This document shows, piece after piece, positions 8,101 through 52,747 of a stretch of DNA of 64,000 nucleotides; the first letter of the stretch is position 1, and each line of letters opens with the position of its first letter. The translations under genes were made by a program, and so were the position numbers. Origin of the DNA: Candidatus Bipolaricaulota bacterium (GTDB taxonomy: Bacteria; Bipolaricaulota; Bipolaricaulia; RBG-16-55-9; DRXL01); the NCBI GenBank assembly GCA_036783095.1, contig DAIPXV010000001.1:4043-68042 (forward strand), in the 5' to 3' direction. A model generated the notes under the pieces. It was not told the origin of the DNA and searched no databases. It saw only the letters and a program-made list of their open reading frames with translations.

Positions 8101-9047
8101 AGACCCTGCAAAAGCTCTTTAGGAATCCTTTGTCGCTGACGGGCATCGTTCTTGTAGCATTCTTTGCGCTTGTTGCTATCTTCGCACCGTGGTTGGCTCC
8201 TCCAGATCCGCCCGCAGCACGCCCTGACGATCCTTATCGCATCGCTCAGTGTGGCTATCTGCCAACCCCTCGACCGCCAACCAATGCTAATCCTTTAGAA
8301 GATATAATAAAAATTGTGACCCGCCAGGCGAAGATCTGCGAGGTCAACCCCTTTGGAACCACAGAAAACCAGTATGATATCTACTATGGAGTGGTCTGGG
8401 GCACGCGCATCGCTTTCTTTGTCGGGCTGGTCATCACCGCGGCGAACGTCTTAATCGGGTTGTTCATTGGGTCGCTGAGCGCGTACTACGGGAAATGGTT
8501 TGACGAACTGATGATGCGCATCACCGACGTGTTTTTGGCATTCCCGTTCTTGGTTGCGGCCGTGACGATGGCCGCGGTGCTGCGGGCCAAGTTCGGCTCC
8601 AGCGGGGGATTAATGATCGGGGTGATCGCGCTGATCGTCTTTGGCTGGATGGGCTATGCCCGGCTCATCCGTGGGGATATCCTCTCGATCCGCGAGCGCG
8701 AGTACGTGCTCGCCGCTCGAGCCATCGGAGCGAGGGACGGGCGCATCCTGCTCAAACACATCTTGCCCAATGCGATCTTTCCCACGTTAGTTGTCGCTTC
8801 CATGGACATTGGATCATATGTGCTCAGCTTCGCGGCGTTGAGCTTTCTAGGATTAGGAGCGGAGATTGGTTTTGCTGACTGGGGCCAGATGATCTCCTTC
8901 GCCCGCAATTGGATCATCAACCTCGATCAGTATTGGTACATCGTCTTCTGGCCGGGCATGGCCATTCTGTTCTTCGTGCTGGGCTGGAACTTGATCGGCG
9001 ACGCCTTCAGAGATATCCTCGATCCGCGCTTGAGAGGCCGCGTCTGA
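8097..9047 (+). CDS. ABC permease (DppC/OppC-like)
   Basis: Permease with SIREREYVLAARAIGA (EAA loop). 4-nt overlap with the previous permease. No ATPase genes follow. Confidence 0.8.
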   Translation: MKTLQKLFRNPLSLTGIVLVAFFALVAIFAPWLAPPDPPAARPDDPYRIAQCGYLPTPRPPTNANPLEDIIKIVTRQAKICEVNPFGTTENQYDIYYGVVWGTRIAFFVGLVITAANVLIGLFIGSLSAYYGKWFDELMMRITDVFLAFPFLVAAVTMAAVLRAKFGSSGGLMIGVIALIVFGWMGYARLIRGDILSIREREYVLAARAIGARDGRILLKHILPNAIFPTLVVASMDIGSYVLSFAALSFLGLGAEIGFADWGQMISFARNWIINLDQYWYIVFWPGMAILFFVLGWNLIGDAFRDILDPRLRGRV

Positions 9048-9048
9048 T

Positions 9049-9246
9049 CTATTCTTTCTCTTCCTCGAGAGCGATGATCTCCATCCCCTTGTAATACCCA
9101 CAATTGAGACAAACGCGATGGGGAAGCTTAGGCTCATGACAGCGCGGGCATTCGTTGATCGTGACCGGAGTAAATCTATAGCTTGCTGCCCGATGCATCC
9201 GTTTCTGCGAACTTGATCGCCTGTACTTTGGTTGTCCCTGACCCAT
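9049..9246 (-). CDS. rpmF: 50S ribosomal protein L32 (zinc-ribbon form)
   Basis: KYRRSSSQKRMHRAA...CPRCHEPKLPHRVCLNCGYYKG. Confidence 0.8.
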   Translation of the reverse strand: MGQGQPKYRRSSSQKRMHRAASYRFTPVTINECPRCHEPKLPHRVCLNCGYYKGMEIIALEEEKE

Positions 9247-9261
9247 AATCACAACTCCTAA

Positions 9262-9394
9262 AATGTAGAATCACGGAAAGCACAGAGAAGAACTGAAAGC
9301 GCGGGAAACAACTCTTCTTCGGTTTCCGTGTGCTCCGTGAGATTTCCGTGCCTTCCGTGATCCAAATTCTATCAGATTGGGCTTGTCTTTGCAA
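9262..9394 (-). promoter_or_regulatory. rpmF promoter (TTGCAA, 17 nt spacer, TAGAAT) plus leader carrying four tandem CACGGAR repeats
   Basis: The minus strand reads TTGCAA-agacaagcccaatctga-TAGAAT, then ttggat CACGGAAgg CACGGAAat ct CACGGAGca CACGGAAacc. The plus strand carries the inverted copy TAGAATCACGGAAAG at 9266-9280. Confidence 0.5.
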
Positions 9395-9836
9395 CCGGCG
9401 GGCTCTCAATAATAAAAGTCACGGGGCCATCGTTGACGAGCGAGACTTTCATCCGTGCCCCAAAGACCCCAGACTCGACCTTGAGGCCGCTACGGCGCAG
9501 CTCCTGCAAGAAGAGCTCATAGAGCACACGAGCTTGGTCCGGGGGGGCAGCAGCGTCGAAGCTAGGACGCCGCCCCTTGAGCGTATTCCCGTAGAGCGTA
9601 AACTGCGAGATCACTAAAATCTCGCCCTGCACGTCCTTGACGGAAAGATTCATCTTGCCTGCAGAATCCTCAAAGATTCGCAGTCCCAACACTCGATCAG
9701 CTAGGAAGATCGCATCGTGCTCGGAATCGCCCTTGCCCACCCCTAAGAACACCAAGAGCCCTGGGCCAATCTGCCCCACACTCTTGCCTTCAATCTCGAC
9801 GGACGCTTCTCTGACGCGCTGCAGCACAACTCGCAT
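9372..9836 (-). CDS. dtd: D-aminoacyl-tRNA deacylase
   Basis: MRVVLQRV...GLLVFLGV...GKMNLSV...ISQFTLYG are Dtd signatures. Confidence 0.85.
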
Positions 9837-9910
9837 GATGCGCTATTGTAATCTCTCAGTTGGGCGTGAGCAAGCTTGCAGACACTCGCTCACAGACTCT
9901 ATAATGAGTT

Positions 9911-11434
9911 ATGTCCAAGCGCCCCTATGTGCTCATCGTCCTAGACGGCTGGGGAATGCGCCAGGAGACCCAATGGAACGCGATTGCATGCGCCAAGACC
10001 CCCAATTTTGACCGCTATTGGAAAAACTATCCCCACACGCTCGTGCGCACCGATGGGCGCGCCGTGGGGCTACCTGAGGGACAGTTTGGCAACTCCGAGG
10101 TCGGCCATCAGAACCTCGGCGCGGGGCGCGTCGTCGTGCAGACCTCGACCCGGATATCTGACGCTATTGCTGACGGAAGTTTTTTTGCGAATAGAGCGCT
10201 CTTGCGCGCCACGACGCGCGCGCAAAACAGCCGACTCCATCTCATAGGGCTTGTGAGCGACGGCGGCGTGCACAGTTTGCTAGAACATCTCTTTGCGCTA
10301 ATCGAGCTTGCGCGCCGCGAACACGTCTATAATCTCTATATTCACGCGTTTTTAGATGGCCGCGATACCCCGCCGACCTCTGGAGCGAGTTACGTCAAGC
10401 GCGTGCGCGAGCTTTGTGAAGACGTGGGCTTTGGTCAGATCGCCACGATCATGGGGCGCTACTGGGCCATGGATCGCGATAATCGTTGGGAGCGCACAGA
10501 GAGAGCCTATCGCGCTTTGCGGTTTGCTGAGGGTCTCAGAGATGATGGCCCTGCGGAAGCTGCCGTCGCGCGCGCCTACCAGCGCGGCGAAACCGATGAA
10601 TTTATCCAGCCCATCGTGCTTGACCCTGAAGGAGCTGTTCAGGACGGCGACGCTGTGATCTTCTTTAACTTTCGCCCCGATCGGGCGCGACAGCTCACGC
10701 GCGCGTTCACAGAAAAAGACTTTGTGCACTTCGATCGTGGGCCACGCCCACAGATCGAGTTCGTCACCCTCACTCAGTACGATCAACGCTTTACGGTCCC
10801 TGCGGCCTTCCCCAGCGAAGATTCTTTGTCCCACATCTTCGGCGAGGTCCTAAGCACTTCGGGACTGACGCAGTTCCGCATCGCGGAGACGGAAAAGTAC
10901 GCGCACGTCACGTACTTCTTCAACAACGGCCGCGAGATTCCCTTCCCCGGAGAAGAGAGAAAACTCATCCCCTCGCCCAAGGTCGCGACATACGATCTCA
11001 AGCCAGAGATGTCGGCCTACGAAGTCACCGACGAAGCCGTGAAGCAGATCACGAGTCGTCGCTACGACTTCGTTCTGATAAACTATGCGAATCCCGATAT
11101 GGTGGGGCACACGGGCGTCTTTGAAGCTGCGGTCAGAGCTGTAGAAGCTGTTGATGAGTGTCTGGGTCGGGTGGTGGAAGCGGCACTCTCAGTGAACGGA
11201 GAAGTTTTAGTCACGGCGGATCACGGCAATGCAGATATTATGAAGGACGAGCAAGGCCGACCGCACACGGCCCACACCCACAGCCCCGGCCCGCTCATCT
11301 ATATCGGGCCTAGGGCTATACAACTCTCTGGGGGCGGGGCACTCTGCGACATCGCGCCCACGCTCTTGGAGCTTATGGGGCTCAAACAGCCGAAAGAGAT
11401 GACGGGGCGGAGTTTAGTCCTATGGCAGAACTGA
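9911..11434 (+). CDS. gpmI: 2,3-bisphosphoglycerate-independent phosphoglycerate mutase
   Basis: VLIVLDGWG...GNSEVGHQNLGAGRVV...ADHGNAD are iPGM motifs. Confidence 0.85.
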   Translation: MSKRPYVLIVLDGWGMRQETQWNAIACAKTPNFDRYWKNYPHTLVRTDGRAVGLPEGQFGNSEVGHQNLGAGRVVVQTSTRISDAIADGSFFANRALLRATTRAQNSRLHLIGLVSDGGVHSLLEHLFALIELARREHVYNLYIHAFLDGRDTPPTSGASYVKRVRELCEDVGFGQIATIMGRYWAMDRDNRWERTERAYRALRFAEGLRDDGPAEAAVARAYQRGETDEFIQPIVLDPEGAVQDGDAVIFFNFRPDRARQLTRAFTEKDFVHFDRGPRPQIEFVTLTQYDQRFTVPAAFPSEDSLSHIFGEVLSTSGLTQFRIAETEKYAHVTYFFNNGREIPFPGEERKLIPSPKVATYDLKPEMSAYEVTDEAVKQITSRRYDFVLINYANPDMVGHTGVFEAAVRAVEAVDECLGRVVEAALSVNGEVLVTADHGNADIMKDEQGRPHTAHTHSPGPLIYIGPRAIQLSGGGALCDIAPTLLELMGLKQPKEMTGRSLVLWQN

Positions 11435-14647: not shown

Positions 14648-14720
14648 TGGGCCCGGCAGGATTCGAACCTGCGACCAACCGGTTATGAGCCGGCCGCTCT
14701 GACCCCTGAGCTACGGGCCC
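14648..14720 (-). tRNA. tRNA with anticodon CAU (elongator Met or Ile-lysidine type), CCA not encoded
   Basis: Reverse complement GGGCCCGTAGCTCAGGGGTCAGAGCGGCCGGCTCATAACCGGTTGGTCGCAGGTTCGAATCCTGCCGGGCCCA. Anticodon loop cuCAUaa. Anticodon stem is not the GGG/CCC initiator type. Confidence 0.8.
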
Positions 14721-50695: not shown

Positions 50696-51922
50696 ATGTG
50701 GATCTTCCTCAAGCTGGCCGCGCGCAATCTCTTGCGCAACAAGCGCCGCAGCGCCATCACGTTCATCGCCATCGGGCTGGGGCTCGTACTCGTGCTCTTC
50801 TTCTACGGCTTCATCCAAGGCGTAGACAAACAGTTCACGGATAATTTTATCAAAGCTCAGACGGGACACATCCAGATGCACGCGCGCGGCTACCAGGAGA
50901 AAGCCCGGCTCATGCCCGTAGATATCGCTATCAAAGACTATCAGAGCGTCGTCCGAAAGCTCGCAGAATTCCCCAGCGTGAAGGGCATCTACCCAAGATT
51001 GCGCTTTCCCGTCATTATCAGCACCGGTAGCGAGAGTTTAGGAGTGCTTGGGCTGGGCTTTGATCCGCAAGCTGAGCGCGACGGCGTCATCGCCACAAAG
51101 ATCGTCCAGGGGGAGTATCTCTCAGAGAAGCCCGGCTACGCCCTCATCGGAGTGCAGCTTGCGAAAGACTTAAAAGTCGGCGTCGGCGATCTCTTGACGC
51201 TCGTAGCTACGACTCCCAAGGGCGCATTGAACTCTATTGACGTCGAGATCAAGGGCATCTTTGCGACGGGGTACAGCCAGATAGATAACTCTGTTTTGGC
51301 GTTGGCCTTGCCTGATGCTCAGAAGCTCCTGCGCATGGCAGGGCAAGTCACCGAAATTACCCTGATGCTCAACGACGCCGATCAAGCCGACTCTGTTGCC
51401 CAGATCATCCGAGAGAGATTCAGCGACGATGGCTTGGAAGTCCAGACATGGAAAGAGCTTGGCGCAGCGATCTTCGAATTGCTAAACGCACGGCGGCAAC
51501 TCATCGCGATCATCTCGCTTGTTGTGATCTTGATCGCGACCCTAGGGATCGTGAACACGATGCTGATGTCGGTCTTTGAGCGGGTGCGGGAGATCGGGAC
51601 CCTGATGGCTTTGGGGATGACGCCGGGGGAGATTCGGCTGCTCTTTCTGCTAGAAAGCGCGATCTTGGGGGCAGCAGGCGGATTGATGGGAGTGGGAATC
51701 GGCGGCGCTCTGTTAAAATACTTTTCGGTCGCAGGGATCACGATCACTCAAGCATCGCAGTTCGTCAATGTCCCGATAGGGACGACGTTCTATGCTGAGT
51801 TCTCTTGGAAGACATTAGGGATGTTCTTTGTGTTAGCGCAAGCTGTAGCCGTGCTCGCGGCGCTCTACCCTGCATATATTGCGTCCAAACAAGAGCCGGT
51901 GCAGGCGCTGCGCCATGTGTAG
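50696..51922 (+). CDS. FtsX/MacB/LolE-family ABC permease with a large periplasmic domain
   Basis: N-terminal LKLAARNLLRNKRRSAITFIAIGLGL. Periplasmic domain between TM1 and TM2. Three C-terminal TMs (the FtsX-like arrangement). Confidence 0.75.
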   Translation: MWIFLKLAARNLLRNKRRSAITFIAIGLGLVLVLFFYGFIQGVDKQFTDNFIKAQTGHIQMHARGYQEKARLMPVDIAIKDYQSVVRKLAEFPSVKGIYPRLRFPVIISTGSESLGVLGLGFDPQAERDGVIATKIVQGEYLSEKPGYALIGVQLAKDLKVGVGDLLTLVATTPKGALNSIDVEIKGIFATGYSQIDNSVLALALPDAQKLLRMAGQVTEITLMLNDADQADSVAQIIRERFSDDGLEVQTWKELGAAIFELLNARRQLIAIISLVVILIATLGIVNTMLMSVFERVREIGTLMALGMTPGEIRLLFLLESAILGAAGGLMGVGIGGALLKYFSVAGITITQASQFVNVPIGTTFYAEFSWKTLGMFFVLAQAVAVLAALYPAYIASKQEPVQALRHV

Positions 51923-51963
51923 AATCACGGAACGCGCAGAAATGGGCACGGAAGACACGGAGA
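51920..51963 (+). promoter_or_regulatory. TAGAAT box followed by three CACGGAR repeats in the leader of the LolA-like gene
   Basis: TAGAAT CACGGAAcgcgcagaaatggg CACGGAAga CACGGAGag, then the RBS AAAGGAGG. Same architecture as the rpmF leader. Confidence 0.45.
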
Positions 51964-51991: not shown

Positions 51992-52747
51992 ATGAACGCG
52001 ATGCGCATCGTTGGGATCGTTCTCATAGTGGGTCTTATGGTCGTCGGTCTGGGGTGGGCACAGCAGCCCGCTGCTGAAGAGATTCTCAAAAAATCCGTCG
52101 AGTCGAGCTACCCGGAGCAGTTCGTCTCGCTCAATAAATTGGAGAACTTCGAGAAGGGCCAACTGAGCAGCGCGTATGAGCTGCGCGTCTTCAAGAAGGG
52201 CAGCGACAAAGCCCTTTTAGAAGTGCTCGCGCCTGAGGACGCCAAGGGGCAGAAGATCCTGAGGGTCGGCGATGAAGTCGTCATTCTCTTCCCGGAAAAC
52301 TGTCGAATCGTCCCGCTGAGCGCGCGGCAGAACGTCCTCGGCACTAGCTTCACCATCGCGGATGTCTTGAGAGTGGACTTGGTGAAAGATTATAACGCCA
52401 AGCTCTTGGGCGCGGAAAGAGTCCAAGACCGTCCAGCGTACAAGCTCGAGCTGACGGCAAAAGATGAGACCGTGCCCTTCGCGCGGATTCTCTACTGGGC
52501 AGACGCAGAGAACTTTTTGCCCCTGCAGAGCGAATTCTACACCGAGACGGGAAAGCTCTTGCGGCGCGCCCTCTACGAAGAGCGCAAGCAGCTCGCCGGC
52601 GCGCTGCGCCCCAGTAAGATCACTATCGAAAACGCGCTCGAGGCCGGCACCAAGACCGTCATGACCATCCTCGAGATGGAGAGCAAAGATCTTCCAGACT
52701 CGATGTTCACCAAAGAAGCTCTTTTAGAGTCATGCAAGAAGCCGTGA
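51992..52747 (+). CDS. LolA-like / outer-membrane lipoprotein-sorting-family periplasmic protein
   Basis: Signal peptide. ~250-aa beta-rich protein between the FtsX-like permease and the ABC ATPase. Context-based call, weak motif support. Confidence 0.45.
   Translation: MNAMRIVGIVLIVGLMVVGLGWAQQPAAEEILKKSVESSYPEQFVSLNKLENFEKGQLSSAYELRVFKKGSDKALLEVLAPEDAKGQKILRVGDEVVILFPENCRIVPLSARQNVLGTSFTIADVLRVDLVKDYNAKLLGAERVQDRPAYKLELTAKDETVPFARILYWADAENFLPLQSEFYTETGKLLRRALYEERKQLAGALRPSKITIENALEAGTKTVMTILEMESKDLPDSMFTKEALLESCKKP

Follow-up and report, generated by a model that had tools for sequence, protein, structure and literature searches.

Genes and promoter at the rpmF locus

The minus strand of the window (the whole 64-kb stretch of DNA that was analysed) carries dtd, which encodes D-aminoacyl-tRNA deacylase (9372-9836; Pfam Tyr_Deacylase), followed by rpmF, which encodes the 65-aa ribosomal protein L32 (9049-9246, with its ATG at 9246-9244; Pfam Ribosomal_L32p). 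A promoter scan and alignment with relatives place a sigma-70-type promoter at the end of dtd, with the -35 hexamer TTGCAA (9389-9394) inside the dtd 3′ end, a 17-nt spacer, and the extended -10 element TG-a-TAGAAT (9366-9374; TG at 9374-9373, TAGAAT at 9371-9366), all on the minus strand. This is the sole promoter-like site that the scan found in 8800-10100, and the dtd stop codon (TGA, 9374-9372) doubles as part of its extended -10. A preliminary description of the locus had proposed this promoter, and we found that it is borne out in relatives, where the -35, the 17-nt spacer, the TG and the -10 all align (TTGCAC/TAAGAT in locus L242; TTGCGA/TAATAT or TAAGAT in L243-L245). The Shine-Dalgarno sequence of rpmF (AGGAG, 9255-9259, minus strand) is conserved in the same loci, L242-L245. 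No terminator was found between the two genes at the dtd/rpmF junction, so that rpmF may also receive read-through transcription from dtd.

In the window the gene that follows rpmF is a convergent oligopeptide permease gene. In two relatives a conserved ORF of 106-108 aa with no Pfam match stands after rpmF (L242, 3245-3571; L243, 3218-3538).

A heptamer-array hairpin in the rpmF leader

The region between the -10 and the Shine-Dalgarno sequence is occupied by an ORF-less hairpin element of ~100 bp (9266-9365, minus strand) that is built from heptamer arrays and consists, in order, of TTGGAT, a forward arm, 16 central nt (9323-9308), a decayed reverse arm and ATTCTA. The forward arm (9324-9359, minus strand; nhmmer E = 2.8e-12) reads CACGGAA gg CACGGAA atct CACGGAG ca CACGGAA, that is, four perfect heptamers in two pairs. 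The four CACGGAR units that had been reported at 9-11 nt spacing ahead of rpmF are indeed there, at 9359-9353, 9350-9344, 9339-9333 and 9330-9324 on the minus strand, with start-to-start distances of 9, 11 and 9 nt, and the first of them begins six bases past the TAGAAT of the -10. The reverse arm (9272-9307, plus strand; nhmmer E = 3e-4 for 9264-9288) reads CACGGAA ag CACAGAG aag AACTGAA ag CGCGGGAA on the plus strand and is decayed in every unit beyond its CACGGAA. The element thus has terminal inverted repeats (9359-9324 / 9272-9307), a small size and no coding capacity.

The same region had been described as an imperfect palindrome of ~105 bp. The inverted sequence on which this was based, TAGAATCACGGAAAG on the plus strand at 9266-9280, is present and forms the inverted end of the decayed reverse arm, but the best inverted pair is just 17 nt long (9270-9286 with 9345-9361, 88% complementarity) and outside this pair the reverse arm is decayed. 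In the predicted fold its two outer units pair with forward units 1 and 2. The TAGAAT on the plus strand was considered as a second promoter and rejected, as no -35 was found for it and it is the terminus of the reverse arm.

Folding of the RNA of 9240-9375 gave -43.6 kcal/mol (z = -2.8), and folding from the transcription start predicted from the -10 gave -40.2 kcal/mol (z = -1.8). The Shine-Dalgarno sequence lies outside the element hairpin; in the minimum-energy fold it takes part only in a weak 5-bp local hairpin, which the centroid lacks. Rfam 15 returned no meaningful match for the rpmF region (9000-9600) even at E up to 10, nothing above the gathering thresholds in the whole window except two tRNAs (228-299 and 14648-14720, both on the minus strand), and weak miRNA-hairpin look-alikes only for 15 element-rich loci.

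Next, we compared the number of heptamers with chance expectation. The window contains 31 CACGGAR, compared to 17.1 +/- 4.0 in shuffles, and two clusters of at least three units within 40 nt, compared to none in 300 first-order Markov simulations, indicating that the clustering is beyond chance.

A second copy upstream of a LolA-like gene

With an nhmmer model built on A-type arms, exactly three arms were found in the 64-kb window, two at rpmF and one at 51920. The latter is a solo forward arm on the plus strand (51920-51962), written TAGAAT CACGGAAcg CGCAGAAatggg CACGGAAga CACGGAG, with units CACGGAA, CGCAGAA, CACGGAA and CACGGAG separated by cg, atggg and ga (spacing 9/12/9). It has an FtsX/MacB-type permease gene on one side and a LolA-like gene (ATG at 51992) on the other, and the TAG of its TAGAAT is the permease stop codon; there is no -35 at 51920. 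The arm is kept in four orthologues, among them L051 (a Candidatus Fraserbacteria MAG), L211 and L225, in which units 1, 3 and 4 are preserved, and only unit 2 and the spacers are variable. In L296, whose LolA-like protein is 82% identical, TAGAAT runs directly into TGATGAAG...AGGAGG and the arm is absent. The TAGAAT at this locus is thus part of the flank, and the second locus is polymorphic for presence and absence, like the rpmF locus described next.

The array is dispensable at rpmF

L32 homologues were used to retrieve syntenic loci with the gene order ubiE, asp23, gpmI and then dtd-rpmF. The element is present in L242 (L32 89% identical), where TTGCAC, 17 nt, TGcTAAGAT and gtgaat are followed by CACGGAAggCACAGAAattccCACGGAGaaCACAGGAG ... 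TTCCGTGctttcagttctcCTCCGTGctTTCCGTGattc, and where two of the four forward units are mutated. In L243-L247 (L32 84% identical, same dtd-rpmF synteny), the array is absent and the spacer is 47 nt; the promoter (TTGCGA and 17 nt, with TGaTAATAT or TGaTAAGAT as the -10 in L243-L245) and the Shine-Dalgarno sequence are kept. The array is also absent in the more distant L248. Because promoter and Shine-Dalgarno sequence are kept without the array in L243-L247, the array is evidently dispensable, and the conserved parts at rpmF are, on this comparison, the promoter and the Shine-Dalgarno sequence. By its own account the preliminary description would be refuted if the motif did not recur elsewhere and the repeats were not conserved upstream of rpmF in relatives; just one half of this applies, as the motif does recur and the repeats are not conserved there in L243-L247.

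The empty GGATTC and the occupied GGAT[element]ATTC are compatible with an insertion that duplicated 2 bp (AT). However, GAAT/ATTC recurs at A-type termini, and could be an inverted terminus rather than a duplication. Furthermore, the L243 spacer matches the right end of the element at 11 of 15 positions (115 of 20000 shuffles), so that the polymorphism may be a deletion that left a remnant in the L243 lineage rather than an insertion in the lineage of the window. The element and dtd show the same DNA identity (79%) when the window is compared with L242. Different units have decayed in the window and in L242, and the array is lost in L243, which argues that no strong function holds the array at rpmF. 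The intact forward arm at rpmF, together with the kept units 1, 3 and 4 of the solo arm, could nevertheless reflect selection (exaptation) rather than youth.

Dispersal of the arms across phyla

The module of TAGAAT and four units recurs outside rpmF in the window, and arms of like build are found in other phyla. An exact-match contig scan with GTAGAATCACGGAA was dominated by chance 14-mer matches (4 relevant loci among the 120 listed). The gapped four-unit pattern, which carries ~44 bits and for which we estimate <0.1 chance matches per 10^12 bases, was found in at least 120 metagenome contigs. Among the matches listed, 113 of 138 arms start with CACGGAG and 25 with CACGGAA, an inverse arm follows 7-218 nt downstream in 75 of the 138, the units are most often 9 nt apart and the mid-spacer measures 3-6 nt, the spacers are rich in purines but show no other constraint, and several contigs hold 3-7 arms each. 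An arm generally consists of purine-rich CRCRGAR heptamers, as a rule in two pairs, with a distance of 9 nt within a pair and 10-13 nt from one pair to the next, and the layout proposed for the family (CRCRGAR, two pairs, 2-nt spacers, 3-6 nt between pairs, and an inverse arm) is that of the rpmF element.

An 8-kb locus of Candidatus Acetothermia (L010) contains at least six arms, which separate small toxin-antitoxin, Uma2 and HicAB genes; one pair forms a compact 85-bp hairpin in which gaatCACGGAAggCACGGAAacaccCACGGAAggCACGGAA is followed by 9 nt and its inverse. Arms are also found in a second Acetothermia MAG (L099), in Fraserbacteria (L051) and in Parabeggiatoa (L052). On the megaplasmids 1 and 2 of the cultured Gemmatirosa kalamazoonensis, 28 and 25 places, respectively, are similar to one element, and Bacteroides finegoldii and B. 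ovatus also contain matches to the element. The heptamer arms belong to a family of small repeat elements with high abundance in metagenomes from soil, sediment, gut and hot springs as well as in cultured Gemmatimonadota and Bacteroidota.

In L010 (4500-7750) and in L185, which is the same region from a metagenome, cassettes with a Uma2 nuclease, HicA/HicB, a PIN protein with its antitoxin and a small membrane protein are split by arm elements, and three of the arms adjoin a common GC-rich hairpin gccaagcgtcgcacgcggcgcgtgggcttc, in a layout that resembles a cassette array. We considered integron attC sites for these arms, given the RYYYAAC/GTTRRRY-like flanks of some copies and the toxin-antitoxin cassette array of L010, and set them aside, as attC sites are not known to be made of four direct heptamers and we saw no integrase. 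Other candidates, namely DnaA boxes, parS, Chi and V(D)J-like CAC heptamers, fit poorly in sequence or in architecture.

Next, we examined whether the arms bear traces of selection on an RNA stem. Complementarity between the spacers of facing arms is 44-63%, compared to 31-38% in controls, and this modest excess argues that the heptamers are kept rather than the pairing, although the search pattern itself accounts for part of this. Arm mismatches show no G-U strand bias (32 versus 40, with 47 transversions). Neither the spacers nor the mismatches give a sign of selection on an RNA stem at this level of comparison. How the arms are oriented with respect to flanking genes was assessed by a crude test based on long ORFs, which gave no information, since the GC-rich contigs have spurious ORFs on both strands. 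Clustering of 1671 neighbouring ORFs revealed no transposase or RAYT-type (Y1/HUH) ORF that recurs near the arms, and no other recurrent neighbour.

A scan of viral contigs returned a mixed set, in which many matches are 9-nt coding tandem repeats of giant viruses and few are real hairpin elements. Five viral contigs (L250, L255, L259, L267 and L268) carry 4-5 copies of the 20-nt unit CACGGAGgtccaCACGGAAga upstream of a conserved sequence, with an iteron-like look. In L184 (532-700), at least eight CACGGAA/CGCAGAA units lie directly upstream of a perfect TTGACA-17-TATAAT, that is, in an upstream and not in a leader position.

We found no paper that gives the literal repeat sequences as a described element, although one Bacteroides fragilis PCR primer lies in such an arm, and no paper on repeats around GxxExxY genes, which are treated below. 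With no Rfam family and no paper found, the dispersed heptamer-arm element appears to be previously undescribed.

Taking the anatomy, the dispersal and the presence/absence differences into account, we think it likely, with a probability of roughly 0.75, that the rpmF repeats are a partly decayed copy of a dispersed, ORF-less inverted-repeat element of ~100 bp that sits between promoter and Shine-Dalgarno sequence, and not an operator specific to rpmF. Against this reading counts that the window has only two loci (three arms) in 64 kb, compared to at least six arms in the 8 kb of L010 and at least 25 places on each Gemmatirosa plasmid. A tempting regulatory story is thereby removed from the rpmF locus, where promoter and Shine-Dalgarno sequence are conserved and the repeats are a passenger.

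Regulatory readings of the array

The preliminary description had offered two mechanisms for the repeats, a transcription factor that binds direct repeats and a leader bound by CsrA/RsmA. Both an operator and a CsrA leader would be expected in orthologous leaders and not as scattered inverted arms; the array is not kept in the orthologous rpmF leaders, and inverted arms are scattered over unrelated intergenic regions in other phyla, so that both mechanisms are unsupported in the form in which they were put forward.

What survives best among the regulatory readings, and which we still regard as improbable, is an element exapted as a protein-binding RNA leader, in which CsrA/RsmA, another RNA-binding protein or units acting as Shine-Dalgarno-like decoys for 30S would control translation or stability of the rpmF and LolA-like gene transcripts. 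As in CsrA/RsmA leaders and CsrB-type sponge RNAs, multiple ANGGA units stand in a 5′ leader, and by inspection they fit ANGGA/CANGGA. Dual-site binding by a CsrA dimer prefers a spacing of ~20 nt, and sites 1 and 3, as well as sites 2 and 4, are ~20 nt apart. Such a reading would also accommodate the intact forward arm next to a decayed reverse arm, the sense orientation of both window copies in a 5′ UTR, and the solo arm in four orthologues with units 1, 3 and 4 kept and unit 2 and the spacers variable. However, unlike in CsrA leaders, no site lies over the Shine-Dalgarno sequence (there are four ACGGA cores, and the heptamers never overlap the AGGAG, at least 60 nt downstream), the GGA would be in a stem and not in loops, and the copies are dispersed and inverted and are not conserved in orthologues: the array is missing at rpmF of L243-L247 and at the second locus of L296, and L242 has two of its four forward units mutated. 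The same heptamers also make up inverted arms, where base pairing would engage them, and they are found on either strand with respect to genes; the arm mismatches lack the G-U strand bias. The preliminary description had also advised a check for csrA, and phmmer with the CsrA of E. coli and B. subtilis found no csrA-like ORF in 1.95 Mb comprising the window and the collected loci, which is weak evidence because this is a partial genome sample.

We give considerably less weight to a direct-repeat operator, at which a DNA-binding factor, e.g. a response regulator of the OmpR/PhoB type, would repress rpmF just past the -10. The periodicity of 9-11 bp, with 20-21 bp from pair to pair, would put the sites on one helix face, and the array stands directly after the -10 sequence at both window loci; at 51920, however, a -35 is lacking and TAGAAT begins with a stop codon (TAG), orthologous promoters that keep -35, -10 and Shine-Dalgarno sequence lack the array, and hundreds of copies, of which most have an inverse arm, are spread over unrelated phyla and intergenic contexts. 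A structured RNA leader specific to rpmF, e.g. an autoregulatory mimic of the rRNA binding site of L32, is hardly credible, as the hairpin-forming 5′ UTR of a ribosomal protein gene that might suggest it has no Rfam match even with E allowed up to 10, is missing from close relatives, recurs in sequence upstream of an unrelated gene and folds from the predicted start with a z-score of just -1.8.

The arms are associated with GxxExxY genes

In three loci that had been ascertained by their arms (L121, L207 and L226), a gene of the GxxExxY family (PF13366 PDDEXK_3, TIGR04256) occupies precisely the interval from a forward arm to an inverse arm. The encoded PD-(D/E)XK protein has 125-140 aa and is the sole recurrent ORF between arms. 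No GxxExxY gene was found elsewhere among the arm-ascertained and comparison loci, including the Bipolaricaulota and Fraserbacteria loci, which cover a small fraction of the genomes. PF13366 is listed as of unknown function, and its phylogeny has multiple transfers between divisions (PMC3424549).

We therefore reversed the ascertainment and collected GxxExxY loci by protein similarity alone, namely loci L276-L282 and L288-L295 from metagenomes and MAGs, together with plasmid records from Gemmatirosa, Sphingomonas, Bernardetia, Bacteroides finegoldii and Treponema. When a strict rule is applied, a CRCRRAR array is found within 150 nt of the gene in 8 of 14 such loci, and arrays on both sides in inverted orientation in 4 of the 14. 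In 826 kb of unrelated loci, the background rate of arrays per 150-nt window is 0.2%, which gives a binomial tail of 5e-19. By eye, with variants allowed (CACAGAG, CACGAAG, CGCGAAG and wider spacing), the count rises to ~10 of 14. In B. finegoldii, for example, the arrangement is cacCACAGAGgaCGCAGAGgaCACGGAG...ATG...TAA...CTCTGTGacCTCTGTGtcCTCTGTGgtg. Only two GxxExxY loci were found in the viral contigs. Heptamer arms are thus associated with GxxExxY genes across the family, and a repeat family made of a single conserved heptamer has a statistical link to the GxxExxY/PF13366 nucleases.

The predicted structure of the GxxExxY protein (pLDDT 96) is nearest to Cas4 SSO0001 and to nucleases of the RecB/lambda-exonuclease type, with the Uma2/DUF820 fold lower in the list of structure matches; a sequence search of the PDB found no GxxExxY relative. 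In the window, the arm CACGGAAggCACGGAAatctCACGGAGcaCACGGAA with its decayed inverse arm has the layout of the GxxExxY-bearing loci L121, L279 and L295, and by this analogy the CACGGAA-type arms of the window lineage would be tied to the nuclease by shared architecture only.

Several GxxExxY loci have arrangements of their own. In L284 (a Sphingomonas parapaucimobilis plasmid), L285 and L286, the gene stands in the same orientation between housekeeping genes (fabD-fabG, ade-manC-like, and radA and a FAD protein) with spacers of 30-60 nt, and is evidently tolerated inside operons. L282 (2040-3480) has three tandem GxxExxY genes, each with CACGAAG-type units before it and CTTCGTG-type units after it, a variant heptamer. 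In L294 (5400-5480), five copies of GCCTTTCTC follow the gene instead of CTCCGTG-type units, so that some cassettes use a different repeat. In L241 (2900-3100) and L283 (Gemmatirosa plasmid 1), an inner CACGGAG/CTCCGTG hairpin is nested in CGCAGAGggc / CTCTGCG arrays with a 10-nt period, and in this set a CGCAGAG-type hairpin is directly downstream of a GxxExxY gene.

The ORF-less hairpins and solo arms appear to be non-coding relatives of GxxExxY cassettes, as MITEs are to insertion sequences. A more far-reaching possibility, which we put forward tentatively and consider somewhat doubtful, is that the arms are the recognition or homology ends of an undescribed selfish cassette, spread across phyla, whose active gene is that of the GxxExxY nuclease, and that the ORF-less hairpins have arisen from it as non-autonomous derivatives or are landing sites that it has left empty. 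Like a homing endonuclease, the nuclease would make cuts at the arms or between them, with repair or recombination then spreading its gene. The conservation of one heptamer from Bipolaricaulota to Bacteroidota, alongside drifting spacers, would thereby be accounted for. If nuclease and arms do form a mobile unit, an orphan protein family would gain a testable function, and genome annotation would have to add a further class of repeats, one that lies within operons and 5′ UTRs.

Comparison with known repeat families

Like MITEs, the elements are small (85-250 bp) and non-coding, have inverted arms, occur as many intergenic copies in some genomes, differ in presence and absence between relatives with a possible 2-bp duplication at rpmF, and have longer relatives with an ORF between the same arms. 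However, no transposase-encoding parent was found, and the ORF in question encodes a GxxExxY PD-(D/E)XK protein; the arms are arrays of one heptamer with drifting spacers and not a single unique terminal inverted repeat; the heptamer is common to several phyla; and solo arms are common.

The elements also resemble REP/REPIN sequences and their RAYT genes, being intergenic inverted doublets that form a long hairpin in tens to hundreds of copies, with one small nuclease-type gene flanked by repeats and a possible role as mRNA stabilisers. However, REP is a palindrome with a GTAG head, whereas the heptamer arms are direct repeats without self-complementarity, and GTAG precedes some arm copies only. 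RAYTs are HUH/Y1 enzymes, in contrast to the PD-(D/E)XK protein here, and REP sequences are species-specific.

Correia elements of Neisseria and the enterobacterial ERIC/IRU sequences are likewise small inverted-repeat insertions in 5′ UTRs or between cistrons that are co-transcribed as hairpins, and they are reported to alter mRNA processing and stability and sometimes to supply promoter hexamers. They differ in having no sequence relation to the element and no heptamer arrays, and each is confined to one genus or family. The heptamer element thus behaves in a MITE- or REPIN-like manner, and in a Correia- or ERIC-like manner when transcribed, but the features that define MITEs and REPINs, a transposase parent and a palindromic GTAG REP unit, are missing from it.

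The nearest published analogue in form is the TAACTGA heptamer, which occurs as intergenic direct repeats of 2-6 or more copies in Beggiatoaceae, Cyanobacteria and Bacteroidetes, frequently a short way ahead of a start codon, ribosomal protein genes included (PMC4679880). Its distribution is similarly patchy across phyla with no known transfer mechanism, and S1, Csp or CsrA-like binders have been proposed (PMC4679880). However, the heptamer is another one, TAACTGA repeats hardly ever occur in any but the direct orientation (the 170 sets of BOGUAY include a single indirect repeat) whereas CACGGAR arms as a rule have an inverse arm, and no link to a nuclease has been reported for them (PMC4679880).

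Expected consequences for the rpmF transcript

Transcription is predicted from the -10 to start ~7 nt downstream, at about the first heptamer (near 9359), so that the rpmF mRNA would carry the element as a 5′-terminal imperfect hairpin that leaves out the Shine-Dalgarno sequence, and a dtd-rpmF read-through transcript would carry it as an intercistronic hairpin. Units 1 and 2 could pair with the last two reverse units in a 16-bp stem at the mRNA 5′ end. Hairpins at the 5′ terminus can slow 5′-end-dependent decay, and the 5′ stem of the rpmF mRNA could act in this way. The effect of the element on rpmF is probably either neutral or a modest change in mRNA stability.
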